The position numbers and the translations under genes are program-made. From IMG/VR virus record IMGVR_UViG_3300002220_000425, positions 1,989 to 65,988 of that record: 64,000 bases of DNA; one strand, given 5' to 3'. Positions within the stretch are counted from its first letter, which is position 1. Every line of letters starts with the position of its first letter. The notes beneath the pieces were generated by a model. It saw only the letters and a list, made by a program, of their open reading frames with translations, did no database searches and was not told where the DNA came from. The DNA is from a virus. Taxonomy: Duplodnaviria; Caudoviricetes. This document shows positions 803-29,052 of this stretch, in pieces.

Positions 803-2164
803 GTGAGAGTTATTGAATACGAAGTGTTCCACATGATGGGCCTCAAACGCGCCAACCTGAAGATGCCTGACAACGGTATCGTTCTGTTTGGCGGCGAGAA
901 TGGGCATGGCAAGTCGCGATCGATCGACTCGCTGCTGATGGCGTTGTGTGGCAAGTCTGGCATGGATTGGCCGGATGTTGAGCTTGCGGAAGAAGATCGT
1001 GAAGGATGGGTTCGCGTCAAGCTGAGCGGCGATGCTGAACTGCACGACATGGCAGGGTTCACTGTTGAACTGCAACTGAAGAAGCGTCGTGGCAAGTCAA
1101 CGCTTGAGCGGTTCCGCGTTCTGGACTCCACCGGCGATGAGGCGGCAACCCCGCGAGACTTCCTGCAAAAGCTTTACAGCCTTCGTGCGTTAGACCCTCG
1201 TGCGTTGGAGAAAGCCAAGCCCGCTGAGCGTGTTAGGCTGATCAAAGAGTTGGTTGGGCTTGATTTCAGCGCGTTGGACGCTGAACGCGAAGAGGCTTAC
1301 AAGAAGCGAACGGAAGTCAACCGCGACGGCAAGATGTTGCAAGGGCGGCGTACCGGGATCACGTTCCCTGAAGACACTCCCGATGCACTGATTAGCGTTG
1401 TTGAGTTGGTGGACAAGAAAGACAAGGCGATGGCGCACAACCGTGGCGTCGAGGAAGCGGGCAAGAAGCTTGCCAAGCTTGAAGCCAATGATGCGAAGCT
1501 TGCCGAAGAGATTGCCAAGCTGGAAGAACGCTTGCGAGCACTCAAGGATTCACGTGTTGAAAATCAGGAAGCGATCATCCAACAGAAAGCTGTTGTTGAG
1601 AAGTCGCAAATGGTCGATGTCACCGACATTCAGGCGGCAATCGTCAACAGCGAAGCGGTCAACAAGGAAGTGGCCAAGAAGCTTGAGGCAATGCGTATCG
1701 ACAAAGAGTTGCATGCCCTTGAGGTCGAAAGCCAGAAGCTTACCGACAAGATTGCACGCATCGACAACGAGAAGCAGCGGCGATTGGAGTCTGCCAAGTG
1801 GCCGTTACCAAACATGTCGCTTGATGATTCGGGCGTGTTGCTTGACGGGCTCCCGTTTGAGCAGGCCAGCGCAGCACAGCGGTTGATTGCCAGCGTCAAG
1901 GTCGGCATGGCGTTGAACCCCAAGCTGAAGTTGTTTGTTTCGAAGGACGGCAACGACTTGGATAACAACACGTTGCTTGAGCTTGACAAGATCCTCAAAG
2001 AGAACGGCTACCAGATGATTCTGGAGTTCGTCACTCGCAGCAATGCGGACGAATCGCGGTGTGCGGTGGTGTTCAAAAATGGAACGCAGGTTGGCTTGGC
2101 TGAGGAACCTGAGTTTGATGACGTTTCAGTGGACGCAGAGCAGGGCGGTTCTGAGGCAGAGTAG
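803..2164 (+). CDS. SMC/Rad50-like coiled-coil ATPase
   Basis: Walker A GENGHGKS near N-terminus, long central coiled coil, degenerate signature ASAAQR and C-terminal KDGNDLD. Confidence 0.8.
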   Translation: MRVIEYEVFHMMGLKRANLKMPDNGIVLFGGENGHGKSRSIDSLLMALCGKSGMDWPDVELAEEDREGWVRVKLSGDAELHDMAGFTVELQLKKRRGKSTLERFRVLDSTGDEAATPRDFLQKLYSLRALDPRALEKAKPAERVRLIKELVGLDFSALDAEREEAYKKRTEVNRDGKMLQGRRTGITFPEDTPDALISVVELVDKKDKAMAHNRGVEEAGKKLAKLEANDAKLAEEIAKLEERLRALKDSRVENQEAIIQQKAVVEKSQMVDVTDIQAAIVNSEAVNKEVAKKLEAMRIDKELHALEVESQKLTDKIARIDNEKQRRLESAKWPLPNMSLDDSGVLLDGLPFEQASAAQRLIASVKVGMALNPKLKLFVSKDGNDLDNNTLLELDKILKENGYQMILEFVTRSNADESRCAVVFKNGTQVGLAEEPEFDDVSVDAEQGGSEAE

Positions 2165-7613: not shown

Positions 7614-8750
7614 TTATCCGGCGCCGCGCCGGTTTATTCTCCCAAACAGCCAATCCCTGACCGTATTGGCTGCAAGCAGCAATCGGTGATCGTGTACCAT
7701 CTCCCGGTACACTCCACCCATCGTTTCATCGACGTGCCCCATGATGTAGTTTACGGCAACTTGATCCTTACACGCGCCCGCTTCTGTCTCGAATGTGTGC
7801 CGCAACCAGTAGAACCCGCCTGCTTTGATGCAGGCCGCTTGGCGTACCGCACGGAACCGCTTGCTGATGTCCCCGTTGGATTCGCTGAACTGCTTGCCGT
7901 TCGCACGCACGAAGGCGTACTTGAGTTCTGTCTTGGGACGGCGATTGAGCGATGCAGACAGGGCTTCCCGCGTTTCAGGCCACAGCGGGCAGCGGCGGTC
8001 AACTTCTGTCTTGGGGCGTGGATAGTCGATCCATCCGGTCTTCACTGCTTTGGTTGCCACTGACAGCGGAAGCTCGTTGATGTCGTTGTTGCCGAAAGCG
8101 CAGTTGATCCCCAGCAGCAGCATCGCCTTGAAGTGAACGCCGGATTCGTCCAGCAGCAAATGAATCTGCTCTGGCGTGAACAGCATCTCGTCGCGTGTTC
8201 TGCGATGACGGCGAACCACCTTGGAGCTTGGCTTGCGGAAGTCGGTGCCGGTGTCGATCGTCGCAATCTTCTTGTTGGCAGCAAGCCACTTGAGGATCGT
8301 CTTAACCCGGGTGATCTCGTTCCCAACGGAGATGACGTTGCAACTCTGCAACCTGCCAGCGCGGTACGCCTGGAAGTCTTCTGGCGTGAGGGTGGCAATC
8401 GCCCTGGCTCGGCCCCACATCGCAATGAGCCGCTTGGCTGTACGGCAGTAATCCTTGTATGTCCGATCGGAGAGGTGGCCTGAGTCGCGATCGTCGCGCT
8501 TGGCCAGTAGGAACAGGTTGCACGCATCAGACAGCGTAAGCGATAGCGTGGTGGATTCCGCGATGAACTTCTTGGACTTCTCGCCACCGTCCTTGGCGTA
8601 CGCTTCGTATTCACGCAACGCCCCGGGAGCATCTTCCCAGCGTCCAAAATAAATCAACTTTCCTTTGATTTTTTTGGCCCACTTGCCGGAATCGTGCGGG
8701 AAGAGAGGGAAGTCGGGGTACGGTTTCGGCGGCTTAGCTTTACCTTTCAC
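7614..8750 (-). CDS. int: Tyrosine integrase
   Basis: N-terminal arm domain KPPKPYPDFPLFPH..KWAKKIKGKLIYFG; YWLRHTF, IMGH, VYRE; adjacent to a tRNA 3' half. Confidence 0.93.
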   Translation of the reverse strand: MKGKAKPPKPYPDFPLFPHDSGKWAKKIKGKLIYFGRWEDAPGALREYEAYAKDGGEKSKKFIAESTTLSLTLSDACNLFLLAKRDDRDSGHLSDRTYKDYCRTAKRLIAMWGRARAIATLTPEDFQAYRAGRLQSCNVISVGNEITRVKTILKWLAANKKIATIDTGTDFRKPSSKVVRRHRRTRDEMLFTPEQIHLLLDESGVHFKAMLLLGINCAFGNNDINELPLSVATKAVKTGWIDYPRPKTEVDRRCPLWPETREALSASLNRRPKTELKYAFVRANGKQFSESNGDISKRFRAVRQAACIKAGGFYWLRHTFETEAGACKDQVAVNYIMGHVDETMGGVYREMVHDHRLLLAANTVRDWLFGRINRRGAG

Positions 8751-8770: not shown

Positions 8771-9024
8771 TACACCACCGCTAAACCCGTCCGAAGTTTT
8801 GATGGTGTAGTAAGTGCCAAAAAAACGGAGAAAAAAGTACACCCGGCAGGATTCGAACCTGCAACCCTCGGTTCCGAAGACCGATGCCAGACGTTAGGAC
8901 TTCCAGCGTTTCCCGCTATTTGCCGACTCGGACAAAAATGACTAAACCCATTTGTTGCCGAAAATCGTGATATAGCCCGTGATATTACACCCACTTTACA
9001 CCACTACTCCTTGCAGATACACCA
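8771..9024. repeat. TACACC(A/C) repeats flanking the att core, candidate integrase arm sites
   Basis: Copies at 8771, 8803 (inverted), 8986, 8997, 9018. Confidence 0.55.
8838..8887 (-). other. attP core: 3' half of tRNA-Arg(UCG)
   Basis: Minus strand GCA-TCGGT-CTTCGGA-ACCGA-GGGTT-GCAGG-TTCGAAT-CCTGC-CGGGTGT-A; no 5' acceptor strand or D-arm upstream. Confidence 0.85.
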
Positions 9025-11505: not shown

Positions 11506-11832
11506 TTACGCATCGACAACACGAAACGCAAAATGCTCTTGGATTGCCTGCTGAGCGTCAGTCTCGTCGCTGTGAGCTTCGAGAAAGCCGTAAGCATCAT
11601 CGCCACACACTGGCTCGATGCCCTCCGAACCGCCACGCCCGTTGTTGCCAACAGAAACGGCCATGTCGGTCATTGGGCCGCCAACGTGATGGATAAACCA
11701 AGAGCCGTTCTTGGTGACGTACAGCGTTTTCGTGCGGTAGTTGAAGTCGCTCGAATACGCTCCGTTGCTGTGGAAGAACACAAGGGTTGCGGTTTCAGTG
11801 TTGTACCGCTTGCCATCGATCACTTTGATCAT
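11506..11832 (-). CDS. Conserved phage hypothetical protein
   Basis: MIKVIDGKRYNTETA motif, familiar from small phage proteins. Confidence 0.65.
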   Translation of the reverse strand: MIKVIDGKRYNTETATLVFFHSNGAYSSDFNYRTKTLYVTKNGSWFIHHVGGPMTDMAVSVGNNGRGGSEGIEPVCGDDAYGFLEAHSDETDAQQAIQEHFAFRVVDA

Positions 11833-12033
11833 CAGAGAATCCTGCCCGACTTGGGCTGTTGCGAGTAGCTGACGTGCTACCCTGGGGAAAACATGCAGCG
11901 ACATGCTGCCAGTAACATTATGCACGGACTTGGGACCGTTCGCCAGTATCGACTGGCAAGTGCATTACACACGGGACGCAACAAGCATCCCGTGTGCCCT
12001 CTGCAACGTGGAGCGGCGTCACAGAGGCCCCGT

Positions 12034-17426: not shown

Positions 17427-17774
17427 TTAGTTGCTCTCTCGGATCTTGGCCATTCGGATACGCTTCTGCTTGTCGATCAGCAGGGCGTTGGTGTAGCCAT
17501 TGGACAACCCGACGTAGAACACCACTCGCATGATTGGCGAAGTCTTGAAGTGTTCGATCGTTTCGCTGACCGTCATTCCGTCCAATCCGCCATGCTTTTC
17601 GTCCATGTCCATGCCCATCGCTTCAGCCAAGCTTCTCAGCATTGGCCCAGCGACGTTCTTCCAGATTTCCGCACCGCAATGCTCAACGAACTGATGAGCT
17701 TCTTCGTTTGCCTCTTGGCATTCGGGGTTGTCTCGAACGTCCGTGTACTCAAACTTACCGTTGGTATTCATCAA
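17427..17774 (-). CDS. Hypothetical protein
   Basis: 115-aa ORF with GGAG SD. Confidence 0.6.
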   Translation of the reverse strand: MMNTNGKFEYTDVRDNPECQEANEEAHQFVEHCGAEIWKNVAGPMLRSLAEAMGMDMDEKHGGLDGMTVSETIEHFKTSPIMRVVFYVGLSNGYTNALLIDKQKRIRMAKIRESN

Positions 17775-17853
17775 ACTGCTCCAATACAGGCTTGTGACTG
17801 TTCACCACGTTGGTGAGCCGCATTCAGGCCATGAAACATGGCCCCACTCTGCG

Positions 17854-18135
17854 TTAGGAAACAACGGTTACTTGTCGAGAGTAAACTTGCTCCTCAACGT
17901 ACTTCTTCGTGGTGTAGTCGTAGTAGCGACTGAACACTTCAAACAGATCGCCTTCCCAATCGGTTGCCCAAGTACGAGCGTGCTGGATTGGCGTTGAATA
18001 CTCGTCCCAGCCGCCGTTGTCGCTGTTGTCGTCAAACAGCTTGCCGTTGCGGCGAATGACGTAGCGGGTTCGAGTCCGTGTTACTTTCTTGCCCATTTTG
18101 CGTCGTACTCCTCGTGTGTCATAAGGTTGTTCCAC
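17854..18135 (-). CDS. Hypothetical protein
   Basis: ORF in the minus-strand cassette; true start may be MGKK. Confidence 0.5.
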   Translation of the reverse strand: MEQPYDTRGVRRKMGKKVTRTRTRYVIRRNGKLFDDNSDNGGWDEYSTPIQHARTWATDWEGDLFEVFSRYYDYTTKKYVEEQVYSRQVTVVS

Positions 18136-19910: not shown

Positions 19911-19982
19911 TTCGGGGTGGAGAAGTAGTAACTCGTGAGGCTCATAACCTCAAGATCGCTGGTGCGAACCCAGCCCCCGAGA
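19911..19982 (+). tRNA. tRNA-Met(CAU), initiator-like variant
   Basis: Cloverleaf: TTCGGGG/CCCCGAG, D-stem GAG/CTC, TGAGG-CTCATAA-CCTCA, GCTGG-TGCGAAC-CCAGC; CCA not encoded. Confidence 0.85.
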
Positions 19983-20020
19983 CTGTCGCTGCCCTGAACG
20001 CCAACGACTACCATCTACGA

Positions 20021-23507: not shown

Positions 23508-23526
23508 TTATCAATCAGGGGTGACA
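23508..23526 (-). promoter_or_regulatory. Phage promoter-like motif embedded in the sigma gene's stop region
   Basis: TGTCACCCCTGATTGATAA(T) encodes V-T-P-D-stop. Confidence 0.6.
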
Positions 23527-24083
23527 AGCGATTGCATGTCACGCAATTTATCGGGGGCGAATAGGGCAAAGCGTTGGCGTAGGGTAGCCTTGTATCGTTG
23601 CACTTTGCGTACGGAGCAACCGAGTTCTGCCGCTGCCATTTCGTTGCTCATCTCCAGAAACAACCGTCCGTCAAACGTCATGCCAGATAGAACAATCGCT
23701 GCGCGTAGTTCGTGAACGTCATGGCATAGTCGCGATACGTAGCTGGGCAGTCGGTTGTCGCTGGGTTCGGTGTCGGCCACCAGCGACGAATCAACGGGAT
23801 CGTCTGCGAACGGCGATAGGTGGCCATCATGACAAGCTTGTTGCTCAATCCAGTTGATTAACACTGCATGCACTGAGAGATAAACCGCGCCACGTATTGC
23901 CGATGCTGATTTTGGCGGTCGTTTGGCGATCGTTTCTAAGGCTTTAATCAAGGCGTCTGTGCTGAGGTCGTCAATGTCTGCGGGTTGCATGGTCATGCCA
24001 TACAATCGCAACTTGCGCGTTAGCCGTCTGCGGGCCATTCGCTGAAGTTTCAAGGCGTTGTCGTTGTCAATTTGTGGGATCAC
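23511..24083 (-). CDS. ECF/sigma70-like factor
   Basis: Region-2-like ADIDDLSTDALIKAL; region-4 HTH MSNEMAAAELGCSVRKVQRY; 190 aa. Confidence 0.65.
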   Translation of the reverse strand: MIPQIDNDNALKLQRMARRRLTRKLRLYGMTMQPADIDDLSTDALIKALETIAKRPPKSASAIRGAVYLSVHAVLINWIEQQACHDGHLSPFADDPVDSSLVADTEPSDNRLPSYVSRLCHDVHELRAAIVLSGMTFDGRLFLEMSNEMAAAELGCSVRKVQRYKATLRQRFALFAPDKLRDMQSLVTPD

Positions 24084-24834
24084 GGTAACGAAGTCCTATA
24101 GGCAAGGGAACGGGAACGAAGTCGGCGAACATATCGCCAGTAATATCATGATACGCTGTAACGTTACAACAGGGCAAGGGGATAATCGGCATAAAACGTC
24201 GTAGACAATGAATAAATAAGCGGCCCGTTCTGCCTATTGGCTTAATGCCATGTCATCCGATCTCCGCTCGGCTCACGAATCAACTAAAGAGAACAGACCG
24301 GGAATACACTATGGGATCATGCACGCAACCACTGAAGCCACCACTACACACAATCACCACACAATCACCCACCAATGCCAATCACCCACCAATGAACGCG
24401 ATACACGTAGCATTGCCGCGCCGCTGACTATCCGTATGCCGATCGTCTGCGCCGCTGCGGGGAATGGGTGTTAAAATGGGGGAGATTCTTGGTAAACTGG
24501 GCAAGATAGGCAAGCTATAGCTGCAATGTTGAGCCCTGTTATTAGAAAACTGCCGCAAAATGCCACGTTTTCCGCAGTCCAATCCGATCGACTAGCCCTA
24601 TGCCGTAGGGGGCAGGGTCCCTTTGGCGGCACGACTATTAGTTACGTTCCTCCCCGAACTTTTTCCACCAAAACCGATTTCCCCACTCGGGGGAGAAAAC
24701 CAGTATCCGTGAATCTGCCGCAATTTACGGGCTAAAATGAAAAGCGGGTGTGGTATGCTCACGGGGCGGGATAGACGTGCCGCGAGGTTGCTTCTGCCAC
24801 TGGAGGGGATGAAACGTTACAGGCTGTCATGCTT

Positions 24835-24853
24835 TGTCATGCTTACCGGATAA
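24835..24853 (+). promoter_or_regulatory. Phage promoter-like motif
   Basis: TGTCATGCTTACCGGATAA(T), preceded by a second TGTCATGCTT and a palindrome at 24809-24823. Confidence 0.7.
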
Positions 24854-24873
24854 TATGGATGGCGGGAGAATGG

Positions 24874-24938
24874 GAGGCGGCGGGGCGGGTCCGTAATGCG
24901 AGCAATCGCTAAGGTTGGTTCGATCCCAACACGCTTCA
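24874..24938 (+). ncRNA. tRNA-like element 1 (no anticodon loop)
   Basis: GAGGCGG/ACGCTTC-A acceptor, CGG-N7-CCG, GCGA-GCAA-TCGC, GTTGG-TTCGATC-CCAAC. Confidence 0.6.
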
Positions 24939-25007
24939 CTGTGTGAAATTAACGTCGAGATTCACCGCAAAAACAATACAACGTGACAGCCGGAGAGACG
25001 GCACTTA

Positions 25008-25075
25008 TGAGGCGGCGGCGTGGTGCCGAGCGGAATTATCAGCCCGCAGCCGCGAGTTCGATTCTCGCCCGCCTC
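25008..25075 (+). ncRNA. tRNA-like element 2 (aberrant anticodon loop)
   Basis: GAGGCGG/CCGCCTC-A acceptor, CGGC-GTGGT-GCCG, GCGG-N10-CCGC, GCGAG-TTCGATT-CTCGC. Confidence 0.7.
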
Positions 25076-25106
25076 ATTTAGAGGGTGTTCTTTATGGAGA
25101 CTGTTG

Positions 25107-25478
25107 ATGATTCGATGGGGAGACGAGCAGAAGTCGGCATTGCGTGAGTTTAGTGCTGCTGGTTGGACGCAGGGGCAGATAGCTCGTGCGATGAGTTGCA
25201 GCACGACGACGATTGCCGGGAAGCAAGCTGAGTTGGGTATTAAGTCGATGCCCCGTGGTCGTCGTTCTTACGTGCTTGGCGGCGAGAGCAAGGGTGGAGC
25301 GGTATTTGTGCGGTTGCCGAAGGGGTTGCACCGTGAGTTTGCGGAGATGTGTTTGGATCGCATGGAGTCGATGAATGATTGTTTGGTGAGGCTGATGGCG
25401 GGAGAGGTTGCAGCGTTTCGGGGTGAATTGGTTGAGTCTGAAGCGTTGCAGGGTGAAACGTTACACGGTGGAGAATAG
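25107..25478 (+). CDS. HTH plus ribbon-helix-helix regulator
   Basis: WTQGQIARAMSCSTTTIAGK (GcrA-like HTH) and VFVRLPKGLHREFAEMC..SMND (RHH). Confidence 0.65.
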   Translation: MIRWGDEQKSALREFSAAGWTQGQIARAMSCSTTTIAGKQAELGIKSMPRGRRSYVLGGESKGGAVFVRLPKGLHREFAEMCLDRMESMNDCLVRLMAGEVAAFRGELVESEALQGETLHGGE

Positions 25479-25480
25479 CG

Positions 25481-26035
25481 ATGCGATGGCGTGACGTGAG
25501 GTTTGAGAAGCCGACTGAGGCGGATGCGGATAGCGATAGATACATTTTTCAAAAGCTGACAGGCGGAAGATACACCGCTTGGCACTGGGACAGTCTTGCC
25601 GACTGTATCGCTTGGTGCCCAACCAGCGAACTTCCCGCATTTGATCCGATCCCCGATCCACCCGAGGGCTGGAAGTTCGTGGTGGAGGGCGATGCGTTTG
25701 ATTTTAGATGCCAGGTGTGGGATGCGAGCATTAATCAATATCGACCGCGAAACTATCCTCGCCTGCCACTTACGGCAGGCAACGTTTACATCGTCCCCAT
25801 CGACCCGCCTGCACCACCGGAACCGCAGTATCGACCGTTTGCGAATGCCAAGGAGTTTGCACCGCATCGTGACAGGTGGTGGCGATATGAGAGCGACGTT
25901 TCATCGCGGCGTAGGCCGCCGTGCGCATATGACGGCCTTGGCATTGGCACTGAATCGTGGGAGCAGTGCTTTAATAGCAGGCTTTTTGAAGACGGCAGCC
26001 CCTTCGGCATCAAAGTGGAGCCATTCGAACCATGA
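25481..26035 (+). CDS. Hypothetical protein
   Basis: 184-aa ORF; YRPFANAKEF motif seen in phage proteins. Confidence 0.6.
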   Translation: MRWRDVRFEKPTEADADSDRYIFQKLTGGRYTAWHWDSLADCIAWCPTSELPAFDPIPDPPEGWKFVVEGDAFDFRCQVWDASINQYRPRNYPRLPLTAGNVYIVPIDPPAPPEPQYRPFANAKEFAPHRDRWWRYESDVSSRRRPPCAYDGLGIGTESWEQCFNSRLFEDGSPFGIKVEPFEP

Positions 26036-26199
26036 GCGGCCCTCGATCTGAACCACGTCCGCGATTGACTGACGATCAGGTGCGAGAGATCCGCAAGAGC
26101 GTGGAGGCGTTGAGTGAACTTGCGCGTCGTTACGGAGTGAGTCGGATGACGATACGGGATATTCGGAAGCGAACGAGATACGGGAAGGTGAGGGACTGA
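26032..26199 (+). CDS. 55-aa HTH protein (not in the ORF track)
   Basis: RLTDDQVREIRK...ELARRYGVSRMTIRDIRKR, like the HTH tail of HNH homing nucleases. Confidence 0.65.
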   Translation: MSGPRSEPRPRLTDDQVREIRKSVEALSELARRYGVSRMTIRDIRKRTRYGKVRD

Positions 26200-26200
26200 G

Positions 26201-26818
26201 ATGGTCGCGATGGCAAAGGGCAACTGCTTTGACGGTGCGTGTCTGTGTCCCGATGAGCGAAAGCCGGTGGAGATGGTTGCGTTCAACGGTGGTGGTATTT
26301 CGTGGAAGGGCGGGTATTCGATCGCGAAGTACCTTCCCAAGGCGGCAGTGGAGCACAGGAGCCACAACTGGAACTTTCGGCGGGCGATGCACTTTGCGGA
26401 GAGTATGGATCGATTATCCGTTGGTGTGGCATTCTCGCGCGGCGCGACAGCGTTAAGCCACATGCCGGCGTTCACGGATTACTTTACTGACGTTTTTCTG
26501 CATACACCAGCGTTTGATCAGCCGATGGTCAACCCTGGTTGCCGATACCACATTTTCGTCACGCAAGGGGACAAAACGCCCGTGGCGAAGGACGGATTTA
26601 GGCTGTTTGAGTGGGTTGCCGATCACGGCGCGACGGTCACTTTGGTGACGCTTGCGTGGGCTGAGCACGCGAATCCGACATGGTTTGAGATGTGGCTGGA
26701 GCGAAAACGGCACATGTTCCACAACATTGTCCCTATACTGACCGCGTGTAACGTTACACGCTCGTTTTACACCCTTGAAGAGTTGAGAGCACAGAATGAG
26801 TGGCAGCCAAGCTGTTGA
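26201..26818 (+). CDS. Alpha/beta-hydrolase-like protein
   Basis: Nucleophile elbow GVAFSRGA, TQGD, C-terminal HMFH. Confidence 0.55.
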   Translation: MVAMAKGNCFDGACLCPDERKPVEMVAFNGGGISWKGGYSIAKYLPKAAVEHRSHNWNFRRAMHFAESMDRLSVGVAFSRGATALSHMPAFTDYFTDVFLHTPAFDQPMVNPGCRYHIFVTQGDKTPVAKDGFRLFEWVADHGATVTLVTLAWAEHANPTWFEMWLERKRHMFHNIVPILTACNVTRSFYTLEELRAQNEWQPSC

Positions 26819-27050
26819 GATTGAGAAACGGTTGAACCGTCAGGCCAAACTGAAGGGCACTGACCAGTGGTTCGACATGGGGAACGTGTCTTTCGAGGAC
26901 GCGGCGATAAACTTGGCCGAGAGGCTTGGGCGAGGTGCGGACAAGATTCACGTGACATTGCGAGATGCTGACGATCTTGCGACGGAGTTTGACGTGACGG
27001 TGGAATCGACGCGGGCGTACCGGGTTGTTGGCTTACGTGGCGGTGAGTAA
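26796..27050 (+). CDS. Hypothetical protein
   Basis: 84-aa ORF in the operon. Confidence 0.55.
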   Translation: MSGSQAVEIEKRLNRQAKLKGTDQWFDMGNVSFEDAAINLAERLGRGADKIHVTLRDADDLATEFDVTVESTRAYRVVGLRGGE

Positions 27051-27377
27051 ATGGTAATCAGCACGGACGAAAAGCGGCACCTTGAGCGGCTCGTGGACTC
27101 TGTTGTGGAAGCGAGGGCAGTGTTTGACCTTGCGTCCATGGAGTTGAGCAAGCGACTTGACATCAGCCTTGAATTGGCGTCTGAAGCGATCGATGAGGCT
27201 GATGAGGTTCAGGACTTGTTGGACAAGTTTGGCATTGAGGTGTCATCGTGCGTGAGGACCACGTGGGAGAACGTACAGCGTTCATGCACGGGCGAAGAGC
27301 CTGAAGCTTCGCGTTATTACGACGAAGATGATGAGGAACTGTTCGGCCCTTGGGGTGACGCTTACGAGGGCTGGTGA
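27051..27377 (+). CDS. Hypothetical acidic protein
   Basis: 108-aa ORF in the operon. Confidence 0.55.
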   Translation: MVISTDEKRHLERLVDSVVEARAVFDLASMELSKRLDISLELASEAIDEADEVQDLLDKFGIEVSSCVRTTWENVQRSCTGEEPEASRYYDEDDEELFGPWGDAYEGW

Positions 27378-27820
27378 TGTTTGAAAAGGAACTTGACCCC
27401 ACAGCGCCGATAGAGATCTGCGGAAAGTGGTTTATCTGGGATGCACGTACACGGCGCCATCGACCAGCAGAAGAGCGGCCAGCCAAGCCAGCCAGGACCC
27501 GCAAAAGCGAAGCGGGAGATCGAGATTTGGCTTCCGTTCCTGTTGCCCCTGAACAACGAACTCGCCGGAAAAAACCGCTTCGTCGTAGCCAGGATTGCGA
27601 AATTAGTCAAAGAGTTGACATCGAGATCCATACCTACCGAGTACACTCATGCGACACCGATGCCGTCTTTATTAAACACGCGCTCGACGCAATCGTTGAT
27701 CGACGAGTTATATCGCAAGACACTGCGGAGAAAATCGCGTCAATCAAGTTCCTCGCCGCCGAAAAAGTCGCGACGTACGAGGAAGAAGGACACTTAATCA
27801 AGATCATCGCCGCCGAATGA
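27374..27820 (+). CDS. rusA: RusA-like Holliday junction resolvase
   Basis: DIEIHTYR..CDTD...KHALDAIVD..VISQD. Confidence 0.65.
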   Translation: MMFEKELDPTAPIEICGKWFIWDARTRRHRPAEERPAKPARTRKSEAGDRDLASVPVAPEQRTRRKKPLRRSQDCEISQRVDIEIHTYRVHSCDTDAVFIKHALDAIVDRRVISQDTAEKIASIKFLAAEKVATYEEEGHLIKIIAAE

Positions 27821-27831
27821 TTCGGGCGGGA

Positions 27832-28983
27832 TCACGCAACTTCGGTTTTTTGCTTTCGTGCTAAAACGATCTGTTGCATGTTGGCTCGCTTCATTTCGAT
27901 GATGCGAGTCATCTTCTTTTTCTTCTCTTGGCCGTACGCGAATACCGTATCCCTTCCCGGTATTTCTGCCGGATTGGTGATGCACTTGTCACGGTAGAAG
28001 TGTTCCGCTGCGTAGATTTCGTAAACACGCTTCTGGCTGTTTGTTCGCCATCGTTCTTCGTTGCGTCGATCGGTTGGCGGCTTGCCCCCGCTCTTGAGCA
28101 AGTGCAATTCCCAAGCGATATCCTTCCAGTCCATGCAAAGCTTGTCACGCATGAAGATGATCAGGGCCATTTCGCGGCGTTGCTCAACGTCCCACACAAG
28201 CTTGCGGGTTCTGCGGTTGACGATCGGGCCAAGCTTGGTGCCAGCGGGCGGTGTGGTGAACGAATTACCTTTGATGCGTGCCGTTCGACATGCCTCCTTC
28301 ATTCGGGCACTGGTTGTTTCCGCTTCAAGCTGAGCGAACCCGGCAATGAGCGTCATGAACATCCGGCCAATCGGAGAGTTTGGCTGGAAGTGCTGACCGC
28401 CAAGGTTGAGGATGTGCAAGTTGATGTGGTTGTTTTGGAACCAATCGTTGCAGTACAGAAAGTCACGTGTGTCGCGGAATGCACGATCGCACTTGTCGAT
28501 GATGAAGTGGTCGCCCTGCTTGATCTGTGCAAGGATCTTGCGAACGCCAGGACGGGTCATGAACGGACGTAGCCTTGCGGACCTTGCCTGTCCGTCGTCA
28601 ATCACGCCGGCGAAGCGAACCTTCTGCGGTTGAAGCTGAAATCGGAAGTAATTCTCCATGCGAAGCTTTTGATCAGGGATCGATGAATCCGCCTCGTACT
28701 GGTTCTTGGTGGACACGCGAGCGTAACCGTAAGCACACGGTTGACCGTCTTCAGGCTTGGCGTAGAAGGGCCGCTGAACCTCTTCGCCGGCTGACGGAGA
28801 GCGGTATCGCTTGGGTGGAACCTTGATCAATTCGTCAAACTGTCTCAGTTCTGCGACTGTTCCTGCTTCTGGAATCTGCAAGGTTTCTTCGGTAATTTCG
28901 TTTTTGATTCGCTCGACTTCGGCGTAGACCATCGCCCGCAGTTCGTCGATTGTGTAGATCATCCAGTCTTTGAAGATTGCCAT
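27832..28983 (-). CDS. Serine recombinase (resolvase domain) with N- and C-terminal extensions
   Basis: YGYARVSTKNQ, SIPDQ, RPG, GDHFIIDKCDRAFRD, AGFAQLEAETTSARMKE. Confidence 0.88.
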   Translation of the reverse strand: MAIFKDWMIYTIDELRAMVYAEVERIKNEITEETLQIPEAGTVAELRQFDELIKVPPKRYRSPSAGEEVQRPFYAKPEDGQPCAYGYARVSTKNQYEADSSIPDQKLRMENYFRFQLQPQKVRFAGVIDDGQARSARLRPFMTRPGVRKILAQIKQGDHFIIDKCDRAFRDTRDFLYCNDWFQNNHINLHILNLGGQHFQPNSPIGRMFMTLIAGFAQLEAETTSARMKEACRTARIKGNSFTTPPAGTKLGPIVNRRTRKLVWDVEQRREMALIIFMRDKLCMDWKDIAWELHLLKSGGKPPTDRRNEERWRTNSQKRVYEIYAAEHFYRDKCITNPAEIPGRDTVFAYGQEKKKKMTRIIEMKRANMQQIVLARKQKTEVA

Positions 28984-29052
28984 AGATTTGTCCGTAATTT
29001 TCGGGGAGTTTTGAAACGACAGTGCCGACGATGGCAGTCCGTCCATTTAACT

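Follow-up and report, generated by a model that had tools for sequence, protein, structure and literature searches.

Non-decoding tRNA-like elements in a predicted operon leader of an uncultured temperate phage

Introduction

RNase P, RNase Z and the CCA-adding enzyme all read the acceptor/T half of tRNA, and organelles (t-elements, tRNA punctuation) as well as MALAT1/mascRNA offer documented cases of transcripts punctuated by tRNA-like elements. Phage T4 makes two small stable RNAs, species 1 (rnaC) and its neighbour species 2 (rnaD), from a tRNA-type precursor, and their function is unknown. The t-elements of plant mitochondria are non-canonical cloverleaves with a GGTTCRANYCC T arm that are cut by RNase Z and RNase P to form mRNA 5′ and 3′ ends (PMC1920247), and an excised t-element can be stable (Forner et al., 2007; PMC1920247). 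The YrlA Y RNAs, which are found in bacteria and phages, mimic the D arm, T arm and acceptor stem of tRNA (Chen et al., 2014; PMC4201824), and the YrlA of M. smegmatis is cut by RNase P and receives CCA (PMC4201824).

Here we analyse a stretch of 64,000 nucleotides (the window) from the IMG/VR virus record IMGVR_UViG_3300002220_000425; the record is 65,988 bp long and about 99% complete, and the window covers nearly all of it. On its plus strand lie two short elements, E1 (24874–24938) and E2 (25009–25076), originally predicted to be a pair of paralogous tRNA mimics directly behind a phage promoter. These elements are like the t-elements in having a conserved T arm and acceptor stem beside mRNA ends, here predicted ones, and they share with them the non-canonical cloverleaf, a conserved T-arm motif (in this family a GTTCGAWYC T loop), a position adjacent to an ORF and the sense-strand orientation. 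They differ in belonging to a phage and not to an organelle, we regard them as analogues and not homologues, and their cleavage is something that we only infer. Unlike the t-elements, E1 and E2 also stand in tandem directly behind a phage promoter and have middles that are replaced in the manner of cassettes.

The nearest phage counterpart is T4 rnaC, whose 3′ 90 nt (AF158101, 2911–3000, minus strand) consist of an acceptor-like helix and a GGTTCGAATCC T arm. With 22.3 bits this is the top match of our model R1, built from the E1/E2 family, in the T4 tRNA region and ranks above every T4 tRNA (all at or below 14.4 bits). However, the genes for rnaC and rnaD belong to a tRNA cluster and not to an mRNA leader, their sequence similarity to E1 and E2 is weak, and rnaC carries a 47-nt 5′ extension; we saw no T-loop motif in the rnaD sequence. 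The tRNA-like domain of tmRNA likewise joins an acceptor stem to a T arm without an anticodon arm, and the tmRNA-like combination of G3·U70 with A73 is present in E1 and in two of the related copies described below (both on contig L278). But tmRNA has a tag reading frame, has pseudoknots and exceeds 230 nt, whereas members of the E1/E2 family measure 65–138 nt. A tmRNA or permuted tmRNA was rejected on the grounds that ARAGORN makes no tmRNA call, that G3·U70 occurs in only three of eight copies and that a tag frame and pseudoknots would not fit into elements of this length. YrlA differs in that both ends of the RNA sit, at the anticodon position, in a stem that binds Ro60, and in that its gene lies beside Ro60/Rsr; an identity with YrlA or another Y RNA was also rejected, there being no TROVE/Ro60 domain among the 19 window ORFs scanned with Pfam and no match to an Rfam Y RNA. 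In a literature search we found no description of tRNA-style punctuation by non-tRNA elements in phage operons.

Results

The window phage

The phage is uncultured, and it is temperate since it carries a tyrosine integrase gene adjoining a tRNA-Arg gene as well as a serine recombinase gene. The integrase gene (7614–8750, minus strand) adjoins the tRNA-Arg(TCG) gene (8837–8909, minus strand), a likely attP, and the serine recombinase gene (27832–29046, minus strand) is separate, 2.7 kb downstream of E2. A large terminase gene was also detected. Neither DNA nor protein searches of the INPHARED phage collection returned a relative.

ARAGORN calls just two tRNAs in the window, tRNA-Arg and tRNA-Met. 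The tRNA-Met(CAT) gene (19911–19983, plus strand) has an odd T loop (TGCGAAC/TGCGAAT, with G at the universal U55 site) and a U1·G72 first pair, and these unusual features are kept in relatives (contig L030, 148–220; contig L277, 4026–4097, minus strand).

Two type-P5 twister ribozymes, at 11924–12005 and 17786–17853 (both on the minus strand), score 47.8 and 43.5 bits, above the Rfam threshold. Each occupies a short gap between co-directional minus-strand ORFs, the first between 12034 and 11925 and the second between 17854 and 17774, which indicates that cleavage modules at such gene junctions are used elsewhere in this phage. The former comes after the bpMoxR gene and before ORF 11506–11925, and the latter lies between ORFs 17854–18135 and 17427–17774.

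Anatomy of E1 and E2

Most of the predicted anatomy can be read directly in both elements: the common 5′ start GAGGCGGCGG, an acceptor helix of seven positions with one mismatch in E1, an A discriminator, and a canonical T arm with a perfect 5-bp stem and a TTCGAT(C/T) loop. The E1 acceptor strands (24874–24880 and 24931–24937; GAGGCGG/ACGCTTC) form five Watson-Crick pairs, G3·U70 and the G7×A66 mismatch and are followed by A73 at 24938, while the T stem (24914–24918/24926–24930; GTTGG/CCAAC) closes the loop TTCGATC (24919–24925). In E2 all seven acceptor pairs are Watson-Crick (25009–25015/25069–25075; GAGGCGG/CCGCCTC), A73 is at 25076, and the T stem (25052–25056/25064–25068; GCGAG/CTCGC) closes the loop TTCGATT (25057–25063).

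The middles of the two elements are only 33–36 nt long. In E1 the anticodon arm is replaced by a GCGA-GCAA-TCGC hairpin (24898–24909) of 4 bp, with the GCAA tetraloop that had been predicted, and E2 can form the expected 4-bp stem with a 10-nt loop as a possible GCGG-(10 nt)-CCGC hairpin. The D-like hairpins of E1 and E2, drawn without an 8/9 linker, are possible folds; three relatives differ in this region and have a CG linker followed by a D-like stem of 4–5 bp.

A descriptor of the acceptor and T arm, run over the 64 kb, found E1 and E2 as its only clean matches; composition-matched (first-order Markov) random windows gave a mean of 0.68 loose descriptor matches. E1 scores 63.8 bits and E2 63.6 bits against the family covariance model, which found no third copy in the whole record. 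As had been expected of tRNA mimics, ARAGORN makes no call on either element and neither reaches the Rfam gathering threshold (29 bits), E1 having no Rfam match and E2 matching tRNA-Sec at 21.2 bits.

Promoter, leader and operon

Directly upstream of E1 is a phage-specific, promoter-like motif, TGTCAT-N8-GATAAT (24835–24854, plus strand), whose function as a promoter is predicted. It is an exact copy of TGTCAY-N8-GATAAY, a pattern with 11 exact copies in the window versus 0.01 expected. Because it is the sole plus-strand copy between 21069 and 32320, it is the likely promoter of the operon at 25107–27820, in which case E1, the spacer and E2 would all belong to the leader of the operon transcript. 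The motif with 30 nt around it is identical in L030, and the upstream 300 nt including the promoter are 86–95% identical there. From the promoter spacing, transcription would start at about 24861, leaving a predicted 5′ leader of about 13 nt (24861–24873, plus strand) that RNase P could remove.

The two elements are separated by a spacer of 70 nt (24939–25008, plus strand), one more than the 69 nt first given. It ends in a GC hairpin (24989–25002) followed by ACTTAT, and its 3′ 30 nt are conserved in the related contigs L278 and L281. Neither the spacer fold (z = −0.29) nor that of the whole region (24861–25085; z = −0.86) is unusually stable. We rejected a small ORF at 24943–25107, since spacer length is very different between relatives and E2 is absent from L281, so that its frame cannot be conserved. 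Between E2 and the first gene is a short leader (25077–25106, plus strand) with a GGAG Shine-Dalgarno sequence (25096–25099), which is conserved in L030. The first operon gene, P0001 (25107–25478, plus strand), encodes a protein of 123 aa whose N-terminus, judged by weak PHROG matches only, resembles an HTH. It is followed by gene184 (25481–26035, plus strand), a member of a large family.

Upstream of the promoter motif, at 24806–24826 (plus strand), lies a copy of a dispersed palindrome motif, GAAACGTTACAG. Its 12-mer core has 25 copies window-wide (at most one mismatch) versus 0.19 expected, with palindrome copies for example at 757–781, 13277, 19291, 24811, 25455, 29177, 37018 and 61596. 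One copy precedes the E1 promoter by 9 nt, and the L278 and L281 spacers contain degenerate versions of the motif.

A gene for a protein of 190 aa (23511–24083, minus strand) runs divergently from the E1 promoter region; JGI names the homologues of this protein 'sigma24 family', and its PHROG sigma-factor match is weak only (E = 0.008). This sigma-like protein may be the reader of the TGTCAY-N8-GATAAY promoters. In the roughly 750 nt between it and the promoter (24084–24834) no gene is called in any relative, and the ORFs at 24250–24474 and 24526–24735 are probably not genes. The stretch is 70–92% identical to L030, as conserved as neighbouring coding sequence, and may be a regulatory region or another RNA.

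Copies in related phages

Relatives of the locus were reached through its flanking proteins, P0001, the sigma-like protein and gene184. P0001 has one 84% identical orthologue, P0003 (contigs L030–L032), which lies behind the L030 element; the sigma-like gene has homologues of 52–86% identity on L276–L282; and a search with the gene184 family led to contigs L283–L287. Together they yielded six further copies on five related metagenome contigs and thus, with E1 and E2, eight in all. Orthologues of E1 were found in L278 (760..677, directly behind the same promoter and identical in L282) and in L281 (553..488). Orthologues of E2 were found in L030 (4966–5052, 30 nt before P0003) and in L278 (522..385, 138 nt long and directly before gene184). 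The remaining two are a copy in L287 (3701–3780), 41 nt before a gene184 that is only 58% identical, and a copy in L034 (3318–3404), a distant phage with a P0001 homologue of 39% identity.

The copies range from 65 to 138 nt and are all on the operon sense strand. The E1 type stands directly behind the promoter in the window and in L278/L282, and the E2 type precedes the next ORF by 30–41 nt in four cases, namely the window, L030, L278 and L287. The window phage has two copies, which stand in an mRNA leader and not in a tRNA array. The copies are positional orthologues by synteny and by flanking BLAST matches to the window.

Further searches added no member. Scans of IMG/VR with exact patterns found no relative, the 26 matches of one scan being without acceptor closure. 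Metagenome and genome scans with CGGCGG-N28-58-GTTCGAWYCNNNCNCGNNTCA gave only real tRNAs or chance hits among the matches listed, and searches for related loci with P0001, TerL and a gene184 alignment gave no usable viral contigs. Two candidates, in L105 (60 nt) and L071, were left aside as possible chance matches. L283–L286 have related operons without either element. We also rejected a conserved link between the element and the P0001 gene family, as the distant homologues of P0001 have another gene immediately in front of them. Since L281 lacks E2, L030 lacks E1 and L283–L286 lack both, the function of the elements is dispensable.

A conserved upper half and a variable middle

Across the eight copies 94 of the 96 stem cells pair (54 of 56 in the acceptor and all 40 in the T stem), and nine of the twelve pairs (17 cells) change on both sides. 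A shuffle control reached none of five measures in 500 trials, and when the 3′ partner was slid by 1–3 columns pairing was only 40–54%. The copies had been found with a structure-aware descriptor and model, which biases these pair counts upward; among the six positional orthologues alone, 71 of 72 stem cells pair and five of the twelve pairs have both partners changed. As T stems the copies carry GTTGG, GCAAG, GCAGG, GCGAG, TCACG and GTCGG and as acceptors GAGGCGG, GAATCGG, GAATGGG and CGGTCGT, each matched by its partner strand. Compensated changes are found between positional equivalents, in the T stem of the E1 orthologues at the same site (L281, L278/L282) and in both the acceptor and the T stem of the E2 orthologues (L030, L278). 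The T loop is TTCGAnn in every copy.

In contrast to this constant upper half, the stretch from acceptor to T arm varies from 33 to 112 nt, is mostly unalignable among copies and consists of unrelated middles exchanged between phages. Its loose shared features are a CG(G/A) after the acceptor, a D-like hairpin whose loop contains GG and, a few nucleotides ahead of the T arm, a short hairpin. The D-like hairpin is clearest in L034 and one L278 copy, L278-B (GCGT-GTGGGA(A)-ACGC), and in the other L278 copy, L278-A. Position 3:70 is variable, with G·U and G-C in three copies each and A-U in two, and position 73 is A in six copies and G in two, from which we conclude that the copies share no conserved aminoacylation identity.

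Nowhere among the eight copies is there an anticodon arm of the canonical kind (5-bp stem, 7-nt loop, U33 and an anticodon), and the copies outside the window carry unrelated inserts of 46–112 nt in place of the anticodon arm. None reaches 29 bits against Rfam tRNA: the L030 copy scores 20.4 and the copy L278-A 22.5 bits, and the copies in L281, L287 and L034 and the other L278 copy have no match. ARAGORN calls one of the eight, the L034 copy, as tRNA-Ser GGA, but its 'anticodon' stem pairs at three of five positions and it has G at position 33.

A comparison across related phages, proposed with the original prediction, thus turned up eight copies and covariation but no canonical anticodon arm, and it bears out the view of a non-decoding tRNA-shaped RNA family whose acceptor and T stems covary strongly. 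Judged from these alignments, E1 and E2 are tRNA-derived, non-decoding elements on the sense strand of an operon leader, and it is the acceptor/T-arm half that is kept by selection, with only this upper half constrained. Covariation together with unrelated middles speaks for selected tRNA "upper halves" and not for decayed tRNA genes or decoders. The originally suggested role as a decoy for anticodon nucleases or uncharged-tRNA sensors is unlikely, because the anticodon-arm region is unrelated in sequence and length and nothing anticodon-like is conserved for such proteins to recognise.

Mosaic junctions

The cargo genes at the E1/E2 locus differ between relatives. The window and L030 lose homology at 24870 and regain it at 25056, inside the T loop of E2. 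Between these breaks L030 carries a 127-codon ORF and an element whose 5′ two-thirds differ; in the window the same interval contains E1, the spacer and the 5′ two-thirds of E2. From L281 both E2 and P0001 are missing together, and the left breakpoint of this absence falls precisely at 25008/25009, while L278 has both elements but no P0001. Compared between the window and L281, E1 is identical over its 5′ 29 nt, has six changes in the T stem and differs at nine positions over the T stem and 3′ strand. Breaks in homology between phages therefore fall at element ends or in the T loop, and the constant ends behave as junctions for module exchange between related phages. The description of E1 and E2 as a paralogous pair holds loosely, for the shared 5′ 10-mer and T loop, but the copies are mosaics, and L030 is without E1 and L281 without E2.

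The 127-aa ORF of L030 (4502–4885) stands where the window has E1 and the spacer. In L278 a 230-aa, weakly RecA_N-like gene (820–1512, minus strand) is inserted with a duplicated motif/promoter region.

Discussion

Our analysis leads us to favour, at about even strength for and against, a reading in which E1 and E2 serve as RNase P/RNase Z punctuation of the operon transcript from the 24835 promoter, in the manner of t-elements. The parts retained are those that the end-processing enzymes read: a 12-bp acceptor/T-stem stack, the T loop, a D-like loop containing GG, and an unpaired discriminator. Under this model E1 and E2 would be transcribed as the leader of the operon; host RNase P would cut at 24873/24874 and 25008/25009, and RNase Z, or an equivalent 3′ pathway for precursors lacking CCA, would cut after 24938 and 25076. 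The products would be two RNAs of about 65–68 nt, to which CCA would be added, a 70-nt spacer RNA with a hairpin as its 3′ cap, and an operon mRNA whose new 5′ end would lie 30 nt ahead of the first gene. If these cuts are made, the elements work as RNA punctuation, with their constant ends doubling as junctions for module exchange.

Of the roles originally suggested, a processing signal fits the anatomy best, through the leader position, the U at −1, the upstream hairpin and the missing CCA, although cleavage itself is deduced. The U at −1 is found in four E2-type copies, and every E2-type copy is directly preceded by a GC hairpin and an AU-rich stretch of 5–10 nt. CCA is encoded by none of the copies, just as it is missing from the phage's real tRNAs, and the 3′ trailer sequences of the copies (CTG, CTT, TTT) are similar to those of its own tRNA-Met and tRNA-Arg. 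The sense-strand position of all copies and the twister ribozymes at other gene junctions of the genome also favour this reading. Against it, a processing signal alone leaves the presence of two tandem copies unexplained, and equally the pattern of E1 between the window and L281, for which recombination or a role of the middle that depends on its sequence may be responsible. The related operons that lack one or both elements count against it as well.

A tentative alternative, compatible with punctuation in that processing would then be the route of biogenesis, is that the excised elements act in trans as stable, CCA-tailed RNAs, either as a scaffold with variable cargo or as a sponge for a host factor that reads only the acceptor/T half. 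Middles that are replaced wholesale and do not drift, with homology breaking at element ends or the T loop, argue for such a role, as do the high rank of T4 rnaC under model R1 and the fact that the 5′ 29 nt and middle of E1 are kept between the window and L281 despite six T-stem changes. On the other side, no antisense target of the middles or of the spacer turned up within the phage genome, positions 3:70 and 73 vary so that no identity for aminoacylation is kept, the window middles are just 33–36 nt, and no gene for a partner protein is conserved beside the elements. A narrower form, which we consider rather unlikely, is that after excision and CCA addition the elements, expressed early from a phage-specific promoter, are swappable-cargo scaffolds or upper-half decoys for host factors that read only the acceptor/T half of type II-like tRNAs; an example of such a factor is the AbiE/MenT family of nucleotidyltransferase toxins, which add to the 3′ ends of tRNAs, with a preference for tRNA-Ser (PMC7450476).

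The remaining explanations carry less weight. That the locus acts at the level of transcription, with a leaky terminator before E2-type copies and a tRNA-like fold that modulates read-through as a put-like element or attenuator, seems improbable to us: each E2-type copy does have a hairpin and then an A(Y)UUAU tail, E1 is within about 13 nt of the predicted start, and an alternative, terminator-like hairpin of the window (25070–25087) overlaps the 3′ acceptor strand of E2, but neither L030 nor L278 keeps this hairpin, the U tracts are short, L281 has the GC hairpin alone with no element, and the TTCGAnn loop and 12-bp stack are signatures of tRNA enzymes and not of known antiterminator RNAs. 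We think it very improbable that the role is at the DNA level only, the conserved ends being recombination junctions or att-like sites and the RNA fold incidental. The breaks at 24870 and 25056 relative to L030, the joint absence of E2 and P0001 from L281 with its breakpoint at 25008/25009, and the two recombinase genes in the window would suit it, yet a DNA site needs no complementarity between distant strands, whereas nine of twelve pairs carry compensated double changes and the RNA consensus of the T loop is kept on the sense strand only. An attP fragment was rejected on the same ground, the 5′ strand covarying with the 3′ strand as is not required of an att site. Least credible of all, in our estimate, are functionless tRNA pseudogenes in decay. 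The type II tRNA flavour (E2 contains GCCGAGCGG), the ARAGORN tRNA-Ser call on the L034 copy and the E1 mismatch at 7:66 point that way, but compensatory changes keep both stems in all eight copies while the flanking proteins are only 52–86% identical, no copy keeps an anticodon arm, and the L034 copy, with three of five 'anticodon' stem pairs, has neither U33 nor an Rfam tRNA match. Covariation thus contradicts or disfavours both the pseudogene and the DNA-only explanations.

If E1 and E2 are indeed cut by RNase P and RNase Z, they would represent tRNA-style punctuation of bacteriophage mRNA by non-tRNAs, and, with the two twister ribozymes, would reveal a phage that shapes its transcripts by both borrowed and self-contained RNA-cleavage modules. 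The constant ends, as recombination junctions, offer a concrete mechanism for module exchange. Compared with the T4 species 1 and 2 RNAs, the E1/E2 family adds an independent lineage of tRNA-shaped, non-decoding phage RNAs, here in the context of an mRNA leader.
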